The notes beneath the pieces are model-generated. The model was not told the DNA's origin. It ran no database searches and saw only the letters and a program-made list of their open reading frames with translations. From sequence record PZ452583.1: a DNA stretch of 64,000 bases. One strand, 5' to 3'. Below are positions 4,943 to 64,000 of the stretch, in pieces. The position numbers and the translations under genes are program-made. Position 1 is the stretch's first letter. Every line of letters begins with the position of its first letter. Source of the stretch: a phage.

Positions 4943-5580
4943 TGAATGAACCCCAATTGCTAATTGAAACTTGGGGTCAACCTGGCGAAATTATTGATGG
5001 CGTGCCAATGCTTGAATCCCATGATGGGAAAGACTTAGGTTTAAAACCTGGTTTATACATCGAAGGAATATTCATGCAAGCAGAAGTCGTCAATAGAAAT
5101 AAACGTCTTTATCCAAAACGTATATTAGAAAAAGCGGTAAAAGACTATATTAATGAGCAAGTTTTAACTAAACAAGCTCTCGGAGAATTAAATCATCCTC
5201 CACGCGCTAATGTTGACCCGATGCAAGCCGCTATCATTATAGAAGATATGTGGTGGAAAGGAAATGACGTATACGGACGAGCTCGTGTTATTGAAGGTGA
5301 CCATGGTCCTGGAGATAAATTAGCAGCTAATATTCGTGCCGGATGGATTCCAGGAGTTTCTTCTCGTGGATTAGGTTCATTGACTGACACAAATAAAGGT
5401 TATCGTATCGTAAACGAAGGATTCAAATTAACTGTAGGTGTTGATGCAGTATGGGGTCCAAGTGCTCCAGATGCATGGGTAACTCCTAAGGAAATTACCG
5501 AATCACAGACGGCGGAAGCCGATACAAGTGCCGATGACGCCTATATGGCTCTCGCAGAGGCCATGAAAAAAGCGTTATAA
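4942..5580 (+). CDS. 21: prohead core protease gp21
   Basis: 212-aa ORF, T4 gp21-like sequence and length. Confidence 0.93.
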   Translation: MNEPQLLIETWGQPGEIIDGVPMLESHDGKDLGLKPGLYIEGIFMQAEVVNRNKRLYPKRILEKAVKDYINEQVLTKQALGELNHPPRANVDPMQAAIIIEDMWWKGNDVYGRARVIEGDHGPGDKLAANIRAGWIPGVSSRGLGSLTDTNKGYRIVNEGFKLTVGVDAVWGPSAPDAWVTPKEITESQTAEADTSADDAYMALAEAMKKAL

Positions 5581-57104: not shown

Positions 57105-60100
57105 ATGGCTACTTTAAAACAAATACAATTTAAAAGAAGCAAAACTGCAGGTCAACGTCCTGCTGCTTCAGTATTAGCCGAAGGTGAATTGGCTATAAAC
57201 TTAAAAGACCGTACTCTTTTTACTAAAGATGACTCGGGAAATATTATTGATTTAAGCATTACCGCTGGCGGTAATATTAGTGGAAATATCACTCAAACTG
57301 GCGATTATACACAGACTGGAAAATTTAATTTAATTGGTCCGCAAATTGTAGCAAGCGGTGGATATATTGAGTTTAATTATCGTACTACTGGAAGTGGGGC
57401 TTGGTCCGGTCAACACACTGCAAAAGCTCCAATTTTTGTAGATTTAAGCTCAGCTACTTCCACATCTGAATATAATCCTATAATTAAACAGCGCTTTAAA
57501 GATGGAACTTTTTCATTAGGTACTTTAGTTTCTGAAGGTTCGTTGAAGATTCATTATATTGATGAAACTGGTCAATCTAAATATTGGACATTTGCGCGCT
57601 CAGGTAATTTTCAAGTTGATTCTGGTAATTTATTAGTATCTGGTGGGTATTTAGTCGCTCAGAGTAATATTGAAACAAGAACAGGTTCTTTGATTGGTCC
57701 ATCTGTTGTAACTAAAAATATTTCATTTGATACGAAAGCGTTTGGACAATACGATTCGCAGTCATTAGTTCAATATGTTTATCCTGGAACTGGTGAAACA
57801 AACGGAATTAATTACCTTCGTAAATTCCGTGCAAAATCTGGTGGTACGATTTATCATGAATTAGCTTCTGCACAAACCGGAAAAAGTGATGAACTGTCTT
57901 GGTGGACCGGTAATACAGCCGTTAATAAACAAATGGGCCTTCGCAATGATGGGTCTTTAGTGTTGCGACGCTCACTCGCAATTGGTACAATTACAACAGA
58001 TGAAAACATTAATAATTACGGCTCCACTGGAGCAATGGGTGAATGCTATATAGTCATTGGAGATGCCGCAACTGGTGTATCATATAAAAGATCTGGTGTA
58101 TATGATTTAGTTGCTAATGGTCTTTCTATCGCGTCTATTACTCCTGACAGTTTCCGTAGTACTCGTAAAGCATTATTTGGACGTTCAGAAGACCAAGGCG
58201 GAACATGGAATATGCCTGGAACGAACGCTGCGCTTTTATCAGTTCAAACACAAGCTGATGGAAACTCTGCCGGTGATGGTCAAACCCACATTGGATATAA
58301 TTCTGGCGGTAAAATGAATCATTATTTTCGTGGTACTGGTCAGATGAATATCAATACCCAACAAGGTATGGAAATTAATCCAGGACTGTTGAAACTAACA
58401 ACCGGTACAAACAATGTAATGTTCTATGCTGATGGCGGTATTACATCTGTTAAGCAGCTTTCAATTTATAACGGCGTATATTTAGCAGCCAATAATTCTA
58501 CTGCTGGGCTAACATTCGCTCCAACTACTACAATTGATGGTACTAAGCAAATTTTGTGGGAAGGTGGTAAGCGTGCTGGTCAGAATAAAAGCTATGTAAC
58601 TGTTAAAGCGTGGGGTAATTCATTTAACGCATCTGGCGATCGTAATCGTGAAACAGTTTTTGAAGTAGCTGACGGACAAGGTTATTATTTTTATTCCCAA
58701 CGCGTAGCCCCAAGCGGCTCAGAAACTACTGGTCCTGTTGTAACCCAGTTTGCTGGAGCTGTTAATGCTAGAGGAAGTATTATTACTGACGGAAGTTTTA
58801 AAGTTAATGGATTAAGCACTTTAGTCGGTAATGTTACCATGTCTAATGGTTTGTTTGTCCAAGGTGGTTCTTCTATTACTGGACAAGTTAAAATCGGCGG
58901 AACTGCAGATGCATTAAGAATTTGGAATGCTGAATACGGGGCTATTTTCCGTCGTTCTGAAGATAAGCTTTATATTATTCCAACTCCGCAGAATGCTGGT
59001 GAATCAGGTGGTATTTCTAATTTACGTCCGTTCTATATTACATTAAGTACTGGTAAAGTTTCCATGGTTCATGATGTAGATATCGGCGGCGGTAGATTTA
59101 AAGTAGAAGTGGCTGGAACTACGGCTGGTCAACGTATTATAGTTAATGCAGCGAGCGATGCTATTAGAATAAATGCTCCAACACAAGAGTCTTCTAACTT
59201 CATTCAAGGACGTAAGGCTGATGTGAATAAATGGTATTTGGGTATTGGCGATGGCGGCAACGTCGTTCGTATGCACAGCTACACATATTCACATGGTATT
59301 GCATTAAATTCTGATTCTGTCGATATTACTAAGCCTCTTAAAGTCGGAAACGCCCAACTAGGAACTGACGGTAATATTACCAATGGTTCAGGAAACTTTG
59401 CCAACTTAAATACCACGTTAAATCGTAAAGTTAATTCTGGATTTATTACTTATGGAGCAACCTCTGGATGGTATAAGTTTGCAACAGTAACAATGCCACA
59501 ATCCACTTCGACAGTCTTCTTTAAAATAGTTGGAGGTTCTGGATTTAATAGCGGATTATTCACACAATGTAATATTGCTGAAATTGTTTTACGTACTAGT
59601 AATGAAAGACCTGCTGACTTAAATGCTGCATTATACACAAGAACAATTGGAGCTGCATTTAAAGATATTGCAGTTAATAACGTCTCTGGAGATACATATG
59701 ACATTTATGTTTCTGCTGGAACATATTGTAATCAATTAGCTTGTGAGTGGTCATGTACCGAAAATGCTACTGTTAGTGTTATTGGTATTAACTCATCTAC
59801 ACAATCACCTGTAGATGCTCTTCCAGATACAGCAGTTAACGGTCAAGTTGCTAATGTTCTTAATAACTTAGTTGATCGCGGTAAAGTTAAGCGTTATGAA
59901 GCCGATTCTGAAATAGCTATTAATAACCAAACCGGTATTCGTATCAGAAGCAACAGCGATAAAACTGGTTCTGTTGCTACAATGCTACGAAATGATGGCG
60001 GTAGTTTTTATATTCTGTTTACAGATAAAAATGCCACCGATGGCGCAGCAACTGTTAATGGTGATTGGAATAGTAAACGTCCTTTCGCAATTAACTTAAC

Positions 60101-60866
60101 AACCGGCGAAGTGATGATGAATAACGGCATAGCTGTTCGCAGCGCTGCTTTATTCTATAATAGCATAAACGTCAAAGATAATGGTTCTATTAACTTTGAT
60201 AAATCAGGCGCTAACCCGAGAAATATGAGAATATTTCATGCTGGCGATGCTTCTCGCGGTAACCGTATTGAAATTGCCGATGAAACTAACTATATTGCTT
60301 ACTTTGAAAAAACACCAGGTGGAGCTAATCGCTTTGTAGTAAATAATGCTACTGTAGCTGGTGTTAATCAAATGAATTCATTTGGTATTAACATCAATAA
60401 CGCACTTGGTGGAAATAGTATAGCGTTTGGCGATAATGACACTGGTATTAAGCAAAATGGCGATGGATTATTAGACATATATGCGAATGGTGTACAGACT
60501 TTCCGTTTCCAAAACGGTGATTTGTACTCATACAAAAATATAAATGCTCCAAACGTTTATATTCGTTCTGATATTCGTTTAAAATCTAACTTCAAACCTA
60601 TCGAAAATGCACTTGATAAAGTTGAAAAACTTAACGGTGTCATTTACGATAAAGCTGAATATATCGGTGGAGAGGCAATTGAAACTGAAGCGGGTATTGT
60701 GGCTCAAACGTTACAAGACGTTTTACCAGAAGCTGTCCGTGAAACAGAAGACAGTAAGGGTAATAAAATACTCACTGTTTCTTCTCAAGCCCAGATTGCT
60801 CTTCTGGTTGAAGCTGTGAAAACACTTTCTGCTCGTGTAAAAGAACTTGAATCTAAACTTATGTAA
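57105..60866 (+). CDS. 37: long tail fibre distal subunit gp37 with C-terminal intramolecular chaperone domain
   Basis: 1253-aa ORF; N-terminus is the conserved gp36-binding region; C-terminal about 100 aa (SDIRLKSNF...ARVKELESKLM) resembles autoproteolytic intramolecular chaperone domains. Confidence 0.92.
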   Translation: MATLKQIQFKRSKTAGQRPAASVLAEGELAINLKDRTLFTKDDSGNIIDLSITAGGNISGNITQTGDYTQTGKFNLIGPQIVASGGYIEFNYRTTGSGAWSGQHTAKAPIFVDLSSATSTSEYNPIIKQRFKDGTFSLGTLVSEGSLKIHYIDETGQSKYWTFARSGNFQVDSGNLLVSGGYLVAQSNIETRTGSLIGPSVVTKNISFDTKAFGQYDSQSLVQYVYPGTGETNGINYLRKFRAKSGGTIYHELASAQTGKSDELSWWTGNTAVNKQMGLRNDGSLVLRRSLAIGTITTDENINNYGSTGAMGECYIVIGDAATGVSYKRSGVYDLVANGLSIASITPDSFRSTRKALFGRSEDQGGTWNMPGTNAALLSVQTQADGNSAGDGQTHIGYNSGGKMNHYFRGTGQMNINTQQGMEINPGLLKLTTGTNNVMFYADGGITSVKQLSIYNGVYLAANNSTAGLTFAPTTTIDGTKQILWEGGKRAGQNKSYVTVKAWGNSFNASGDRNRETVFEVADGQGYYFYSQRVAPSGSETTGPVVTQFAGAVNARGSIITDGSFKVNGLSTLVGNVTMSNGLFVQGGSSITGQVKIGGTADALRIWNAEYGAIFRRSEDKLYIIPTPQNAGESGGISNLRPFYITLSTGKVSMVHDVDIGGGRFKVEVAGTTAGQRIIVNAASDAIRINAPTQESSNFIQGRKADVNKWYLGIGDGGNVVRMHSYTYSHGIALNSDSVDITKPLKVGNAQLGTDGNITNGSGNFANLNTTLNRKVNSGFITYGATSGWYKFATVTMPQSTSTVFFKIVGGSGFNSGLFTQCNIAEIVLRTSNERPADLNAALYTRTIGAAFKDIAVNNVSGDTYDIYVSAGTYCNQLACEWSCTENATVSVIGINSSTQSPVDALPDTAVNGQVANVLNNLVDRGKVKRYEADSEIAINNQTGIRIRSNSDKTGSVATMLRNDGGSFYILFTDKNATDGAATVNGDWNSKRPFAINLTTGEVMMNNGIAVRSAALFYNSINVKDNGSINFDKSGANPRNMRIFHAGDASRGNRIEIADETNYIAYFEKTPGGANRFVVNNATVAGVNQMNSFGININNALGGNSIAFGDNDTGIKQNGDGLLDIYANGVQTFRFQNGDLYSYKNINAPNVYIRSDIRLKSNFKPIENALDKVEKLNGVIYDKAEYIGGEAIETEAGIVAQTLQDVLPEAVRETEDSKGNKILTVSSQAQIALLVEAVKTLSARVKELESKLM

Positions 60867-60896: not shown

Positions 60897-61682
60897 ATGG
60901 CAATTGTAGGTGTTCCTGGCTGGATTGGTGAATCTGCCGTGAATGAAACTGGACAACGCTGGATGGATGCTGCAATGAAAGCAGTTCGCGTTTCAGTTCC
61001 TGGCTGGATGAGCTCAATGGCTGGACAATCTAAAGAAGTATATTACAGCATTGGTGCTAGCAATTCTTATAATAAAGACACGTTAATAAACTGGATAAAA
61101 GCCCAAGGAAGCACTCCTGTTGTTATTACTATTACAGGAAATATTGTTTCTCAATCTACTGGTGTTCCATGCTTAGATTTTCCTAGCTCATTAACTAATG
61201 CATACGTGACACTTAATATCAATTCAGGCGTGCATGTTTGGGGCCGTGGCGGGAATGGCGGAAATAACTCTGCCGGTGGAGCAGGAGGAACTGCAATAAA
61301 TAATGGAATTGGAACTAGATTGCGTATTAATAACAATGGTGTTATCGCAGGAGGCGGTGGCGGAGGCGGTGGCGGATACTACTCTCCTTTTTCACAAATG
61401 AAATTGACTTTTGGCGGAGGAGGCGGTCGTCCATTTGGTGCTGCTGGCGGGTCTGCTAATATGGAACAAGGAGCTACTGCTGGTACTATTTCTGCACCTG
61501 GTAAAGGGTCTGTCAATGGTATCTATAATGGCGGGAATGGTGGTGATGCCGGAGCTGCAGGAGGTAAATGTAATATTCGTGGTCAAGGATCAGAATATAA
61601 CGGTGGTGCTGCGGGTAAAGCTGTTACTGGTAATGCTCCAACTTGGACTAAAGTTGGCACAATATATGGTTCAAGAGTATAA
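60897..61682 (+). CDS. 38: receptor-recognising tail fibre adhesin gp38 (T2/T6 type)
   Basis: 261-aa ORF with conserved N-terminal gp37-attachment region and C-terminal glycine-rich motifs separated by variable segments. Confidence 0.85.
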   Translation: MAIVGVPGWIGESAVNETGQRWMDAAMKAVRVSVPGWMSSMAGQSKEVYYSIGASNSYNKDTLINWIKAQGSTPVVITITGNIVSQSTGVPCLDFPSSLTNAYVTLNINSGVHVWGRGGNGGNNSAGGAGGTAINNGIGTRLRINNNGVIAGGGGGGGGGYYSPFSQMKLTFGGGGGRPFGAAGGSANMEQGATAGTISAPGKGSVNGIYNGGNGGDAGAAGGKCNIRGQGSEYNGGAAGKAVTGNAPTWTKVGTIYGSRV

Positions 61683-61714: not shown

Positions 61715-62371
61715 ATGGCAGCACCTAGAATATCATTTTCGCCCTCTGATATTCTATTTGGTGTTCTAGATCGCTTGTTCAAAGATAACGCTACCGGGAA
61801 AGTTCTTGCTTCCCGGGTAGCTGTCGTAATTCTTTTATTTATGATGGCGATTGTTTGGTATAGGGGAGATAGTTTCTTTGAGTACTATAAGCAATCAAAG
61901 TATGAAACATACAGTGAAATTATTGAAAAGGAAAGAAATGCACGCTTTGAATCTGTCGCCCTGGAACAACTCCAGATAGTTCATATATCATCTGAGGCAG
62001 ACTTTAGTGCGGTGTATTCTTTCCGCCCTAAAAACTTAAACTATTTTGTTGATATTATAGCATATGAAGGGAAATTACCTTCAACAATAAGTGAAAAATC
62101 ACTTGGAGGATATCCTGTTGATAAAACTATGGATGAATATGCGGTTCATTTAAATGGACGTCATTATTATTCCGATTCAAAATTTGCTTTTTTACCAACT
62201 AAAAAGCCTACTCCCGAAATAAACTACATGTACAGTTGTCCATATTTTAATTTGGATAATATCTATGCTGGAACGATAACCATGTACTGGTATAGAAATG
62301 ATCATATAAGTAATGACCGCCTTGAATCAATATGTGCTCAGGCGGCCAGAATATTAGGAAGGGCTAAATAA
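61715..62371 (+). CDS. t: holin T
   Basis: 218-aa ORF, T4 T holin-like (N-terminal TM helix, large periplasmic domain). Confidence 0.92.
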   Translation: MAAPRISFSPSDILFGVLDRLFKDNATGKVLASRVAVVILLFMMAIVWYRGDSFFEYYKQSKYETYSEIIEKERNARFESVALEQLQIVHISSEADFSAVYSFRPKNLNYFVDIIAYEGKLPSTISEKSLGGYPVDKTMDEYAVHLNGRHYYSDSKFAFLPTKKPTPEINYMYSCPYFNLDNIYAGTITMYWYRNDHISNDRLESICAQAARILGRAK

Positions 62372-62644
62372 TTATTTGTTCGTATACATCTCTAGATATC
62401 GATATACACCCTCAAAACCCTCGTTGAATTCGTCGATGAGGGTTTTCTTATCTTCTTGAGTTAATTCAGAAACAATTTTACGGAATGAATTCTGATTTAA
62501 TTTTCTACCTTCATGCGTTACTCCAATCTCATTCAGAAATGCAATAAAATTAGCACGATTCTCAACAATATCTTCTCTGGAAAATTTAATCAAAATAGAC
62601 GCAACAGTAATAATTTCACGAACTGTATCAATGTTTTTATTCAT
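62372..62644 (-). CDS. asiA: anti-sigma70 factor AsiA
   Basis: 90-aa ORF, AsiA-like sequence; early promoter upstream. Confidence 0.92.
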   Translation of the reverse strand: MNKNIDTVREIITVASILIKFSREDIVENRANFIAFLNEIGVTHEGRKLNQNSFRKIVSELTQEDKKTLIDEFNEGFEGVYRYLEMYTNK

Positions 62645-62675
62645 TAACTATACCACTCAATTAGTTGACTTTGTT

Positions 62676-62704
62676 ATAATATCATCAGACGCTTGATTTG
62701 TAAA
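62676..62704 (-). promoter_or_regulatory. early promoter for asiA (TTTACA-17-TATTAT)
   Basis: minus strand GTTTACA...TATTAT about 30 nt upstream of asiA ATG. Confidence 0.55.
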
Positions 62705-62805
62705 CTGGTCTGTGTTATTTTCTTCAAAAATTTTTTCTACGAATTCCTTGAACGACTTACGTTCCTGAGCTACATTATGCTCGATTACTTTTTCAAGATT
62801 ATGAC

Positions 62806-63084
62806 TCATTCGAAATAATCTTCAATTTCATAATCATAGACATAAATCATTATAGTTTTTAATACATCATCAATACTTTTTCCTGGAGCTGGAATTACGT
62901 AAAAATATCCTGCTTTTGAGAGGTCTTTATAAGTTCCAATCAAGAAATCATTATTCTCAAGATGTAGTTCTTCAACTAATTCATTAACAATTGAGTGGTA
63001 TAAATTTGGTAGAAACTTATATAGCTTTTCTAGAATATCAATTTTGATTGTGTATTGAACCACGGACTGAGAATCAATAATCAT
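62806..63084 (-). CDS. arn: anti-restriction protein Arn (putative)
   Basis: 92-aa acidic ORF in the position adjacent to asiA. Confidence 0.7.
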   Translation of the reverse strand: MIIDSQSVVQYTIKIDILEKLYKFLPNLYHSIVNELVEELHLENNDFLIGTYKDLSKAGYFYVIPAPGKSIDDVLKTIMIYVYDYEIEDYFE

Positions 63085-63167
63085 AGACCTTCCCCTTATG
63101 TTTCTGTTTGCGATTAGATTCTTTAAACGCTTTCTTCTTATCTTTATGAACAGAAGCTTTATTAAAA

Positions 63168-63386
63168 TTATGCTTTGCGACTAAATTGTTCATAGTGCTG
63201 AATTACCTCTCTCAAACATTTGCATGTGAATGAAAACTTTTTAGCTACACCACATTCAAATATATGTTCTCTTAAATCGCGTGTATCCGTATATCCCATC
63301 TCAACAATAAAATGCCGTATTAGATTTTTATCTTTATCATTGAGAGAATTAAAATAATCAGATTTTGAATTAATTTCTCTGGCCAA
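63168..63386 (-). CDS. hypothetical protein
   Basis: 72-aa ORF with four Cys. Confidence 0.45.
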   Translation of the reverse strand: MAREINSKSDYFNSLNDKDKNLIRHFIVEMGYTDTRDLREHIFECGVAKKFSFTCKCLREVIQHYEQFSRKA

Positions 63387-63666
63387 ATTGAATCACCTTC
63401 AGTTGACGTTTTAGCTCTTTTATCATCTCTTCGTTCATCGCAATATAAAGATCGCGTAAAGCAGGTTTTAGCATGTCATTTATTATAGAACTAAATGGAC
63501 ATACATAATCTTTTCCTACAAGCTTTTTGGTGAATTCCATATCGCAGAACTTAAATCCCGGCTCATTGGTATAAATTCCCCAATTAGTTGACATCATTTT
63601 ATTAGCATATTCCAGTGCCTGGATTTGATTCATAATTCCATCGATTTGAAACTTTTTAATATTCAT
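63370..63666 (-). CDS. hypothetical protein
   Basis: 98-aa ORF. Confidence 0.5.
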   Translation of the reverse strand: MNIKKFQIDGIMNQIQALEYANKMMSTNWGIYTNEPGFKFCDMEFTKKLVGKDYVCPFSSIINDMLKPALRDLYIAMNEEMIKELKRQLKVIQFGQRN

Positions 63667-64000
63667 TAGTAAAGGTCCTCAGAGTAAAGTTCTTTTTCAC
63701 TACCACCACGTTCAATACGTACTTGTCCAGCGTAAGTTGCAATAATCATTGCTTCTTCGCGAGTCCAATAATTACTATATTGGTCAATAAACCCTTGGTC
63801 ATCATCACAAACTTGTTGAGTAACTAATTGAGGTTTAACTACATCTAAAACTTCTGCCATATCTTTAGAATAATGACGAGCACCTGGAATAATAAGAGTT
63901 CGTCCATCTTTTAATTTAAAACGGTTGGCTGCACAGACAATTCGTCGTTGATACTTTTGGTTTTCATCCCAATATGCAGTCTGCCAACAGATTTCAGGAA
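63666..64000 (-). CDS. hypothetical protein, 5'-truncated by window edge
   Basis: Reading frame stays open from the window end (…[27 protein letters not shown]…) to the stop at 63666; ORF-track start at 63860 is an internal Met. Confidence 0.5.

Follow-up and report, generated by a model that had tools for sequence, protein, structure and literature searches.

The DNA examined here is a stretch of 64,000 nucleotides (nt) from a phage (sequence record PZ452583.1; this whole stretch is termed the window), whose final part, from 63,168 to 64,000, lies where an initial annotation had expected the gene for MotA, the T4 middle-transcription activator of 211 amino acids (aa). The three minus-strand open reading frames (ORFs) of this interval are, as judged from their sequences, arn.1, arn.2 and the 3' two-thirds of arn.3. 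The interval is almost certainly the half of the T-even arn operon distal to the promoter, lying on the minus strand as it does in T4, with nothing extra or replaced and with motA predicted at about 64464-65099, just past the end of the window. In other words, the gene content of the interval is already known and the arrangement is the canonical T-even one, so that a false alarm of a missing motA is removed.

Three genes of the arn operon and the place of motA

The identification of the three ORFs follows from matches to T4 proteins, from an annotated gene order shared between phages and from a gap-free DNA alignment. Within the window, T4 AsiA is matched at 100% identity, Arn at 97%, Arn.2 at 95% and residues 44-152 of Arn.3 at 98%, while the 72-aa translation is that of the T4 DNA itself. 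On this strand the order asiA, asiA.1, arn, a 39-aa ORF, arn.1 through arn.4, motA, motA.1 and 52 is common to RB18, JLBYU22 and T4 (the 39-aa ORF being annotated in the first two, and unannotated in the T4 RefSeq record). Aligned three ways from arn through arn.2, the DNA of the window, T4 and RB18 shows no gaps and a mean column identity of 98%. Used as a megablast query against a database of 50,697 phage records, positions 62300-64000 matched 618 Tequatrovirus-type records; 483 of these have a single match that spans 80% or more of the query, and the highest identity is 98.9%. The ORFs, which the initial annotation had located correctly (72 aa and cysteine-containing, 98 aa, and partial), are not chance frames, because each matches a phage protein family (PHROG expectation (E) values of 7e-39 for the 72-aa ORF, 2.6e-50 for the 98-aa ORF, and 2.1e-73 with the full-length JLBYU22 Arn.3 as the query). 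Position, order, strand and overlaps of the arn.1-arn.3 region are identical to those of T4 (95-98% protein and 98% DNA identity); the window phage differs in having the RB18-type variant of Arn.2, a private Gly97Arg substitution in the same protein, and an arn.1 that is read here as 72 aa, versus the 43 aa annotated in T4.

The partial ORF is truly partial: the arn.3 frame remains open to base 63998 (110 codons, without an upstream stop), and a 64-aa entry in the ORF list merely starts at an internal ATG of the same frame. Its window part is 98% identical to T4 Arn.3 and 99% identical to a cluster of 153-aa proteins (P0001), it matches PHROG 839, the family of T4 Arn.3 (precomputed Pfam assignment PF26092), and the gene is annotated in RB18 and T4. 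Arn.2 is homologous over its full length: residues 1-98 align with T4 Arn.2, 97 of 98 positions are covered by PHROG 1844 (the T4 Arn.2 family; precomputed Pfam assignment PF26819), and the gene, on the same strand as motA and asiA, is flanked by arn.3 and arn.1. Its ATG overlaps the stop codon of arn.3 by a single base (TAATG). Arn.1, for its part, is homologous to T4 arn.1 and lies between arn.2 and arn.

That none of these ORFs resembles MotA had been rightly noticed: none contains a MotA Pfam domain, and tblastn searches with T4 MotA, together with searches for Arn.4 and gp52, found no match anywhere in the 64-kilobase window (best E value 0.14). The relationship to motA is one of neighborhood only, motA lying upstream of arn.3 with one gene in between and having no sequence similarity to any ORF of the interval or to anything elsewhere in the window. 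The gene appeared to be absent because a wrong T4 gene order had been assumed and because of where the window ends. The order assumed (t, asiA, arn, motA.1, motA, 52) omits asiA.1 and arn.1 through arn.4 and interchanges motA and motA.1; the annotated T4 order is t, asiA, asiA.1, arn, arn.1, arn.2, arn.3, arn.4, motA, motA.1, 52, in which four genes separate arn from motA. Among 13 related loci (3 annotated phage records and 10 IMG/VR contigs, three of which are Merlin-like, with an Arn.2 only 62-65% identical) motA is directly upstream of arn.4/arn.3 in every one. Mapping from JLBYU22, whose locus base 5201 corresponds to window base 64000, puts the start of arn.3 near position 64127, arn.4 near 64124-64453 and motA at the coordinates given above, that is, starting some 465 nt past 64000 in the closest relatives. 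Beyond the window there would follow the rest of arn.3, then arn.4, motA, motA.1 and gene 52.

The initial annotation had left two alternatives, namely that motA lies beyond the window, which by these results is right, or that the phage has extra or replaced genes here, which is not. What it had named as refuting its reading, standard conserved T-even genes followed immediately by motA, is in essence what is seen here and in the closest relatives. One might suppose, for instance, that a cassette was swapped by recombination at the place of motA, given that no ORF of the interval is MotA-like (by Pfam and by tblastn with T4 MotA against the window), that hypervariable accessory segments occur in T-even genomes, and that the N-terminus of Arn.3 varies strongly among close relatives. 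However, T4 has the same three standard, conserved T-even genes at the same place, the DNA is 98% identical without insertions or deletions, motA follows arn.4/arn.3 in all 13 loci, and the notion that motA should abut arn derives from the wrong assumed order; a replacement is hardly to be entertained.

The extent of arn.1

The T4 RefSeq record (NC_000866) annotates as arn.1 only the last 43 codons (132 nt) of the 72-aa frame, from an ATG at 63299. Several observations argue that arn.1 instead encodes the full 72 aa from a TTG start, and that the 70-nt arn.2-arn.1 'intergenic region' (within 63300-63386) is coding sequence belonging to its first 29 codons. Across 11 genomes the frame is open in all 11, and within codons 1-29 the variable codons are synonymous in 8 of 8 cases in the arn.1 frame, as against 1 of 9 in either other frame; these synonymous changes include an arginine codon that appears as CGG, CGA or AGA. 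(In arn, which served as a control gene, the counts of synonymous variable codons are 20 of 27 in frame and, for the two remaining frames, 4 of 27 and 2 of 27.) The ORF matches both the long-form family PHROG 4452, over residues 1-71 at the E value given above, and the short, 43-aa family PHROG 6212 (E 8.6e-36). Arn.1 homologues are 62-74 aa long and 36-79% identical, with alignments that begin at residues 1-7; the more distant of them (36-64% identity) are 65-74 aa long and likewise align from their N-terminal residues. The coding sequence so defined would begin 14 nt before the arn.2 stop codon, its Shine-Dalgarno-like sequence lying inside the 3' end of arn.2.

The competing view, that arn.1 is a 43-aa protein only and that the 70 nt between arn.2 and its ATG are regulatory and do not code for protein, is the one taken in a preprint on phage T2 (Collins et al., June 2026, bioRxiv 10.64898/2026.06.19.733364). 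It accords with the 132-nt T4 annotation, with the existence of a 43-aa PHROG family and with the lack of annotation of the upstream stretch in RB18; deletion or mutation of that stretch alters transcript stability in T2, according to the preprint, and the long form depends upon a TTG start. Yet that TTG is preceded, 7 nt upstream, by a good AAGGTG, regulation at the RNA level can coexist with coding, and neither the codon pattern of the extension, nor the uninterrupted frame in 11 genomes, nor the length and N-terminal alignment of homologues at 36-64% identity fits a non-coding stretch. A 43-aa arn.1 consequently seems improbable to us, and the 72-aa form is preferred.

As to the nature of the 72-aa protein, an exhaustive HMMER search yielded 13 representative homologues, some of which are long and built of I-HmuI_NUMOD-like helix-turn-helix repeats. 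Residues 13-56 of Arn.1 are linked by phmmer to such a repeat protein (E 5.8e-8, summed over 4 stretches); alignment-to-alignment comparison by hhalign gave a weak result (11% probability), and there was no direct Pfam match of Arn.1 to the NUMOD helix-turn-helix domains (I-HmuI_NUMOD-like, NUMOD1). Arn.1 may be a small helix-turn-helix-like protein.

ArcZ and RNase E at the arn.2/arn.1 junction

[quoted passage not shown] The proposed RNase E motif, given as GcAUU and located 11 nt before the ATG at which arn.1 is annotated to start, was tested there by mutation. The window contains the same five-gene block as far as it extends, with the genes tightly packed (overlaps of 1-26 nt), with GCAUU intact at the same place and with the ArcZ site at the same arn.2 positions. 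If arn.1 encodes 72 aa, it follows that the ArcZ site would coincide with arn.1 codons 2-5 and that the RNase E motif would lie inside arn.1; what the T2 work treats as an intergenic region would be arn.1 coding sequence. Codons 2-5 fall within the range at which sRNAs usually act on translation initiation.

The ArcZ site itself differs. It reads CCAGGGAAAT in T4, RB18, JLBYU22 and seven IMG/VR loci, which is the perfect complement of the ArcZ seed AUUUCCCUGG, as verified in E. coli K-12; here it reads CCAGAGAAAT, with a central G-to-A change that puts an A opposite a C in the 10-bp duplex. Likewise, where the preprint gives a 10-nt site CCAGGGAAAU, complementary to AUUUCCCUGG, the sequence here is CCAGAGAAAU. 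For the local duplex with ArcZ, an energy of -11.8 kcal/mol is predicted, weaker than the -18.7 kcal/mol for T4. The variant appears to be private: no identical copy of the window's 61-mer around the site occurs in 433 phage records, the corresponding 37-mer is absent from the IMG/VR contigs, and a compensating C-to-U change in ArcZ occurs in none of 5415 E. coli genomes. The change, at base 63378, is the one that produces Gly97Arg in Arn.2, whereas the arn.1 codon it falls in keeps its meaning. It may represent a private but neutral single-nucleotide polymorphism, an error in the sequencing, or genuine uncoupling from ArcZ.

It is conceivable, although we regard it as doubtful, that the arn.2/arn.1 junction acts as a combined coding and regulatory hub, in which ArcZ pairing, termination of arn.2, initiation of arn.1 and RNase E access are coupled within about 90 nt, and that the present phage is a natural ArcZ-uncoupled variant. 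Scans for other signals gave the following: sigma-70 promoters in 62300-64000 at chance level (8 found versus 7.7 expected); terminator-like matches in the same interval on the non-transcribed strand; no MotA boxes (searched as TGCTTtA plus a -10 element by regular expression) between asiA and gene 52 of JLBYU22 on the strand that is transcribed; and, by Rfam, a sub-threshold chance match only. These scans thus did not locate a promoter for the arn transcript.

Arn.2, Arn.3 and the neighboring genes

The model of Arn.2 obtained with AlphaFold2 (mean predicted local distance difference test score, pLDDT, 84.5) has helices at residues 3-26 and 60-94, which suggests an antiparallel helical hairpin of roughly 95 residues; the protein is most likely a protein-binding adaptor. 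At residues 59-64 (63474-63491) it reads SSIINDM, as in RB18, versus SSPVNGM in T4 and most homologues. Because P61 and G64 are nearly invariant in the family, the SSIINDM form is a variant of a sub-lineage that affects conserved positions.

The core of Arn.3 (residues 44-153) is predicted to be a compact alpha/beta domain, of a family that occurs in many unrelated phages, and is marked by an invariant Arg-His, a Gln-Gly-Phe and a C-terminal SEDLY. The window translation has all of the invariant columns of a 74-sequence alignment (RH, QGF, R, SEDLY). No solved structural relative of this core was found. The N-terminal helical module that precedes it is seen in relatives, since the window ends at codon 44. 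In these relatives the PADLOC profile PD-T4-9_B is matched, over its positions 1-31, by the N-terminal 30 or so residues (JLBYU22-type allele, E 9e-9; T4-type allele, E 3e-3), whereas the part of Arn.3 inside the window does not match it. PD-T4-9 is the CmdTAC defence system (PMC9519451), within which PD-T4-9_B presumably corresponds to the CmdA antitoxin; CmdA has an N-terminal helix pair followed by a disordered tail (PMC11618068). The Arn.3 model likewise has two predicted N-terminal helices, the likeness to CmdA being by profile and by description, and this segment is hypervariable among near-identical Tequatroviruses (below 60% identity in 365 of 811 matched records). Neither the C-terminus nor the genomic context is that of CmdA, however: Arn.3 continues into a C-terminal domain of 110 aa that is folded and closes with SEDLY, as opposed to a disordered chaperone-addiction tail with an LAA degron, and arn.3 is flanked by arn.4 and arn.2, whereas CmdA is encoded between an ADP-ribosyltransferase (ART) toxin gene and a SecB-like gene. 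The resemblance is a lead, not a classification. When the coding region of the Arn.3 N-terminus was compared with E. coli genomes at the DNA level, no match emerged, and a scan of GTDB genomes for a CmdA-like bacterial gene, using the Arn.3 N-terminal alignment, gave one match that was rejected as spurious (inside a 351-aa ORF containing LSRETPESLAA).

Many database names would make Arn.1, Arn.2 and Arn.3 anti-restriction nucleases like Arn, homologues of all three being so called in UniRef and PHROG. The DM_Arn profile (PF22134), however, is matched by the true arn ORF alone (62806-63084; E 7e-53) and by none of the three at E<=1; the folds predicted, one a helical hairpin and the other a novel alpha/beta domain, bear no relation to each other; and the T2 preprint gives the functions of Arn.1-Arn.4 as unknown, possibly counter-defence (bioRxiv 10.64898/2026.06.19.733364). 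That the three are anti-restriction proteins like Arn is therefore highly improbable, and the label most likely spread from the locus prefix 'arn.'. Searches of PDB sequences with the three proteins gave nothing significant, and Pfam and NCBIfam gave no match. All three are most likely non-essential host-takeover or counter-defence proteins expressed along with Arn.

The coordinates of the features discussed here are collected in Table 1. Among them is a very basic 39-aa ORF (MNNLVAKHNFNKASVHKDKKKAFKESNRKQKHKGKVYDY; RB32ORF249c), which went unmentioned in the initial annotation and which overlaps both the 3' end of arn.1 and the 5' end of arn. The same DNA is present in T4, a homologue occurs in a Merlin-like phage (L012 4468-4584), and three of four variable codons are synonymous in its frame versus none in the other frames.

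Table 1. Features of the arn region (window coordinates unless another locus is named)
Feature	Position	Strand	Basis or remark
asiA	62372-62644	minus	100% identity to T4 AsiA; downstream of arn
asiA.1	62657-62809	minus	annotation in RB18, JLBYU22 and T4; downstream of arn
arn, DNA-mimic inhibitor of McrBC	62806-63084	minus	Pfam DM_Arn (PF22134), E 7e-53; 97% identity to T4 Arn; last gene of the arn transcript
39-aa very basic ORF	63074-63193	minus	Pfam DUF7230, E 1.2e-11; PHROG 1359, E 5e-23
arn.1, proposed long form of 72 aa	63168-63386	minus	TTG start (63384-63386); three Cys
RNase E motif GCAUU	63311-63315	minus	intact; 11 nt upstream of the arn.1 internal ATG; inside the 72-aa arn.1 frame
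ArcZ pairing site of the arn transcript (arn.2 +285 to +294)	63373-63382	minus	CCAGAGAAAT here; variant base 63378
Shine-Dalgarno-like AAGGTG	63394-63399	minus	7 nt upstream of the arn.1 TTG; inside the arn.2 3' end; read from sequence
arn.2, 98 aa	63370-63666	minus	ATG start; annotated arn.2 in RB18 and T4
arn.3, 3' part	63666-64000	minus	codons 44-153 of a 153-aa protein, plus stop; 5' 43 codons past the window end
Candidate CmdA-like module, JLBYU22 arn.3 codons 1-31	L002 5236-5328; window-equivalent ~64035-64127 (outside the window)		PD-T4-9_B profile

Two further observations concern neighboring genes. In Merlin-like phages a 90-aa ORF between the arn.3 and arn.2 homologues (L012 3729-4001) has YELEDYF at its end, which resembles the C-terminus of Arn, and may represent an Arn-like gene at a different position within the same operon. 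On its plus strand the window has T2/K3-type tail-fibre genes, comprising a gp37 of 1253 aa (57105-60866) and a 261-aa gp38 adhesin with glycine-rich motifs (60897-61682); T4's own gp38, by contrast, is a chaperone, whereas the adjacent arn region is T4-like.

For the T4 reference annotation, the evidence favors correcting the length of arn.1 from 43 aa to 72 aa and adding the 39-aa DUF7230 ORF. Arn.2 and Arn.3 are conserved and highly expressed beside an anti-restriction gene. If arn.1 does encode 72 aa, then the elements for ArcZ and for RNase E would both lie inside coding sequence, which would alter how the mechanism described for T2 should be tested.
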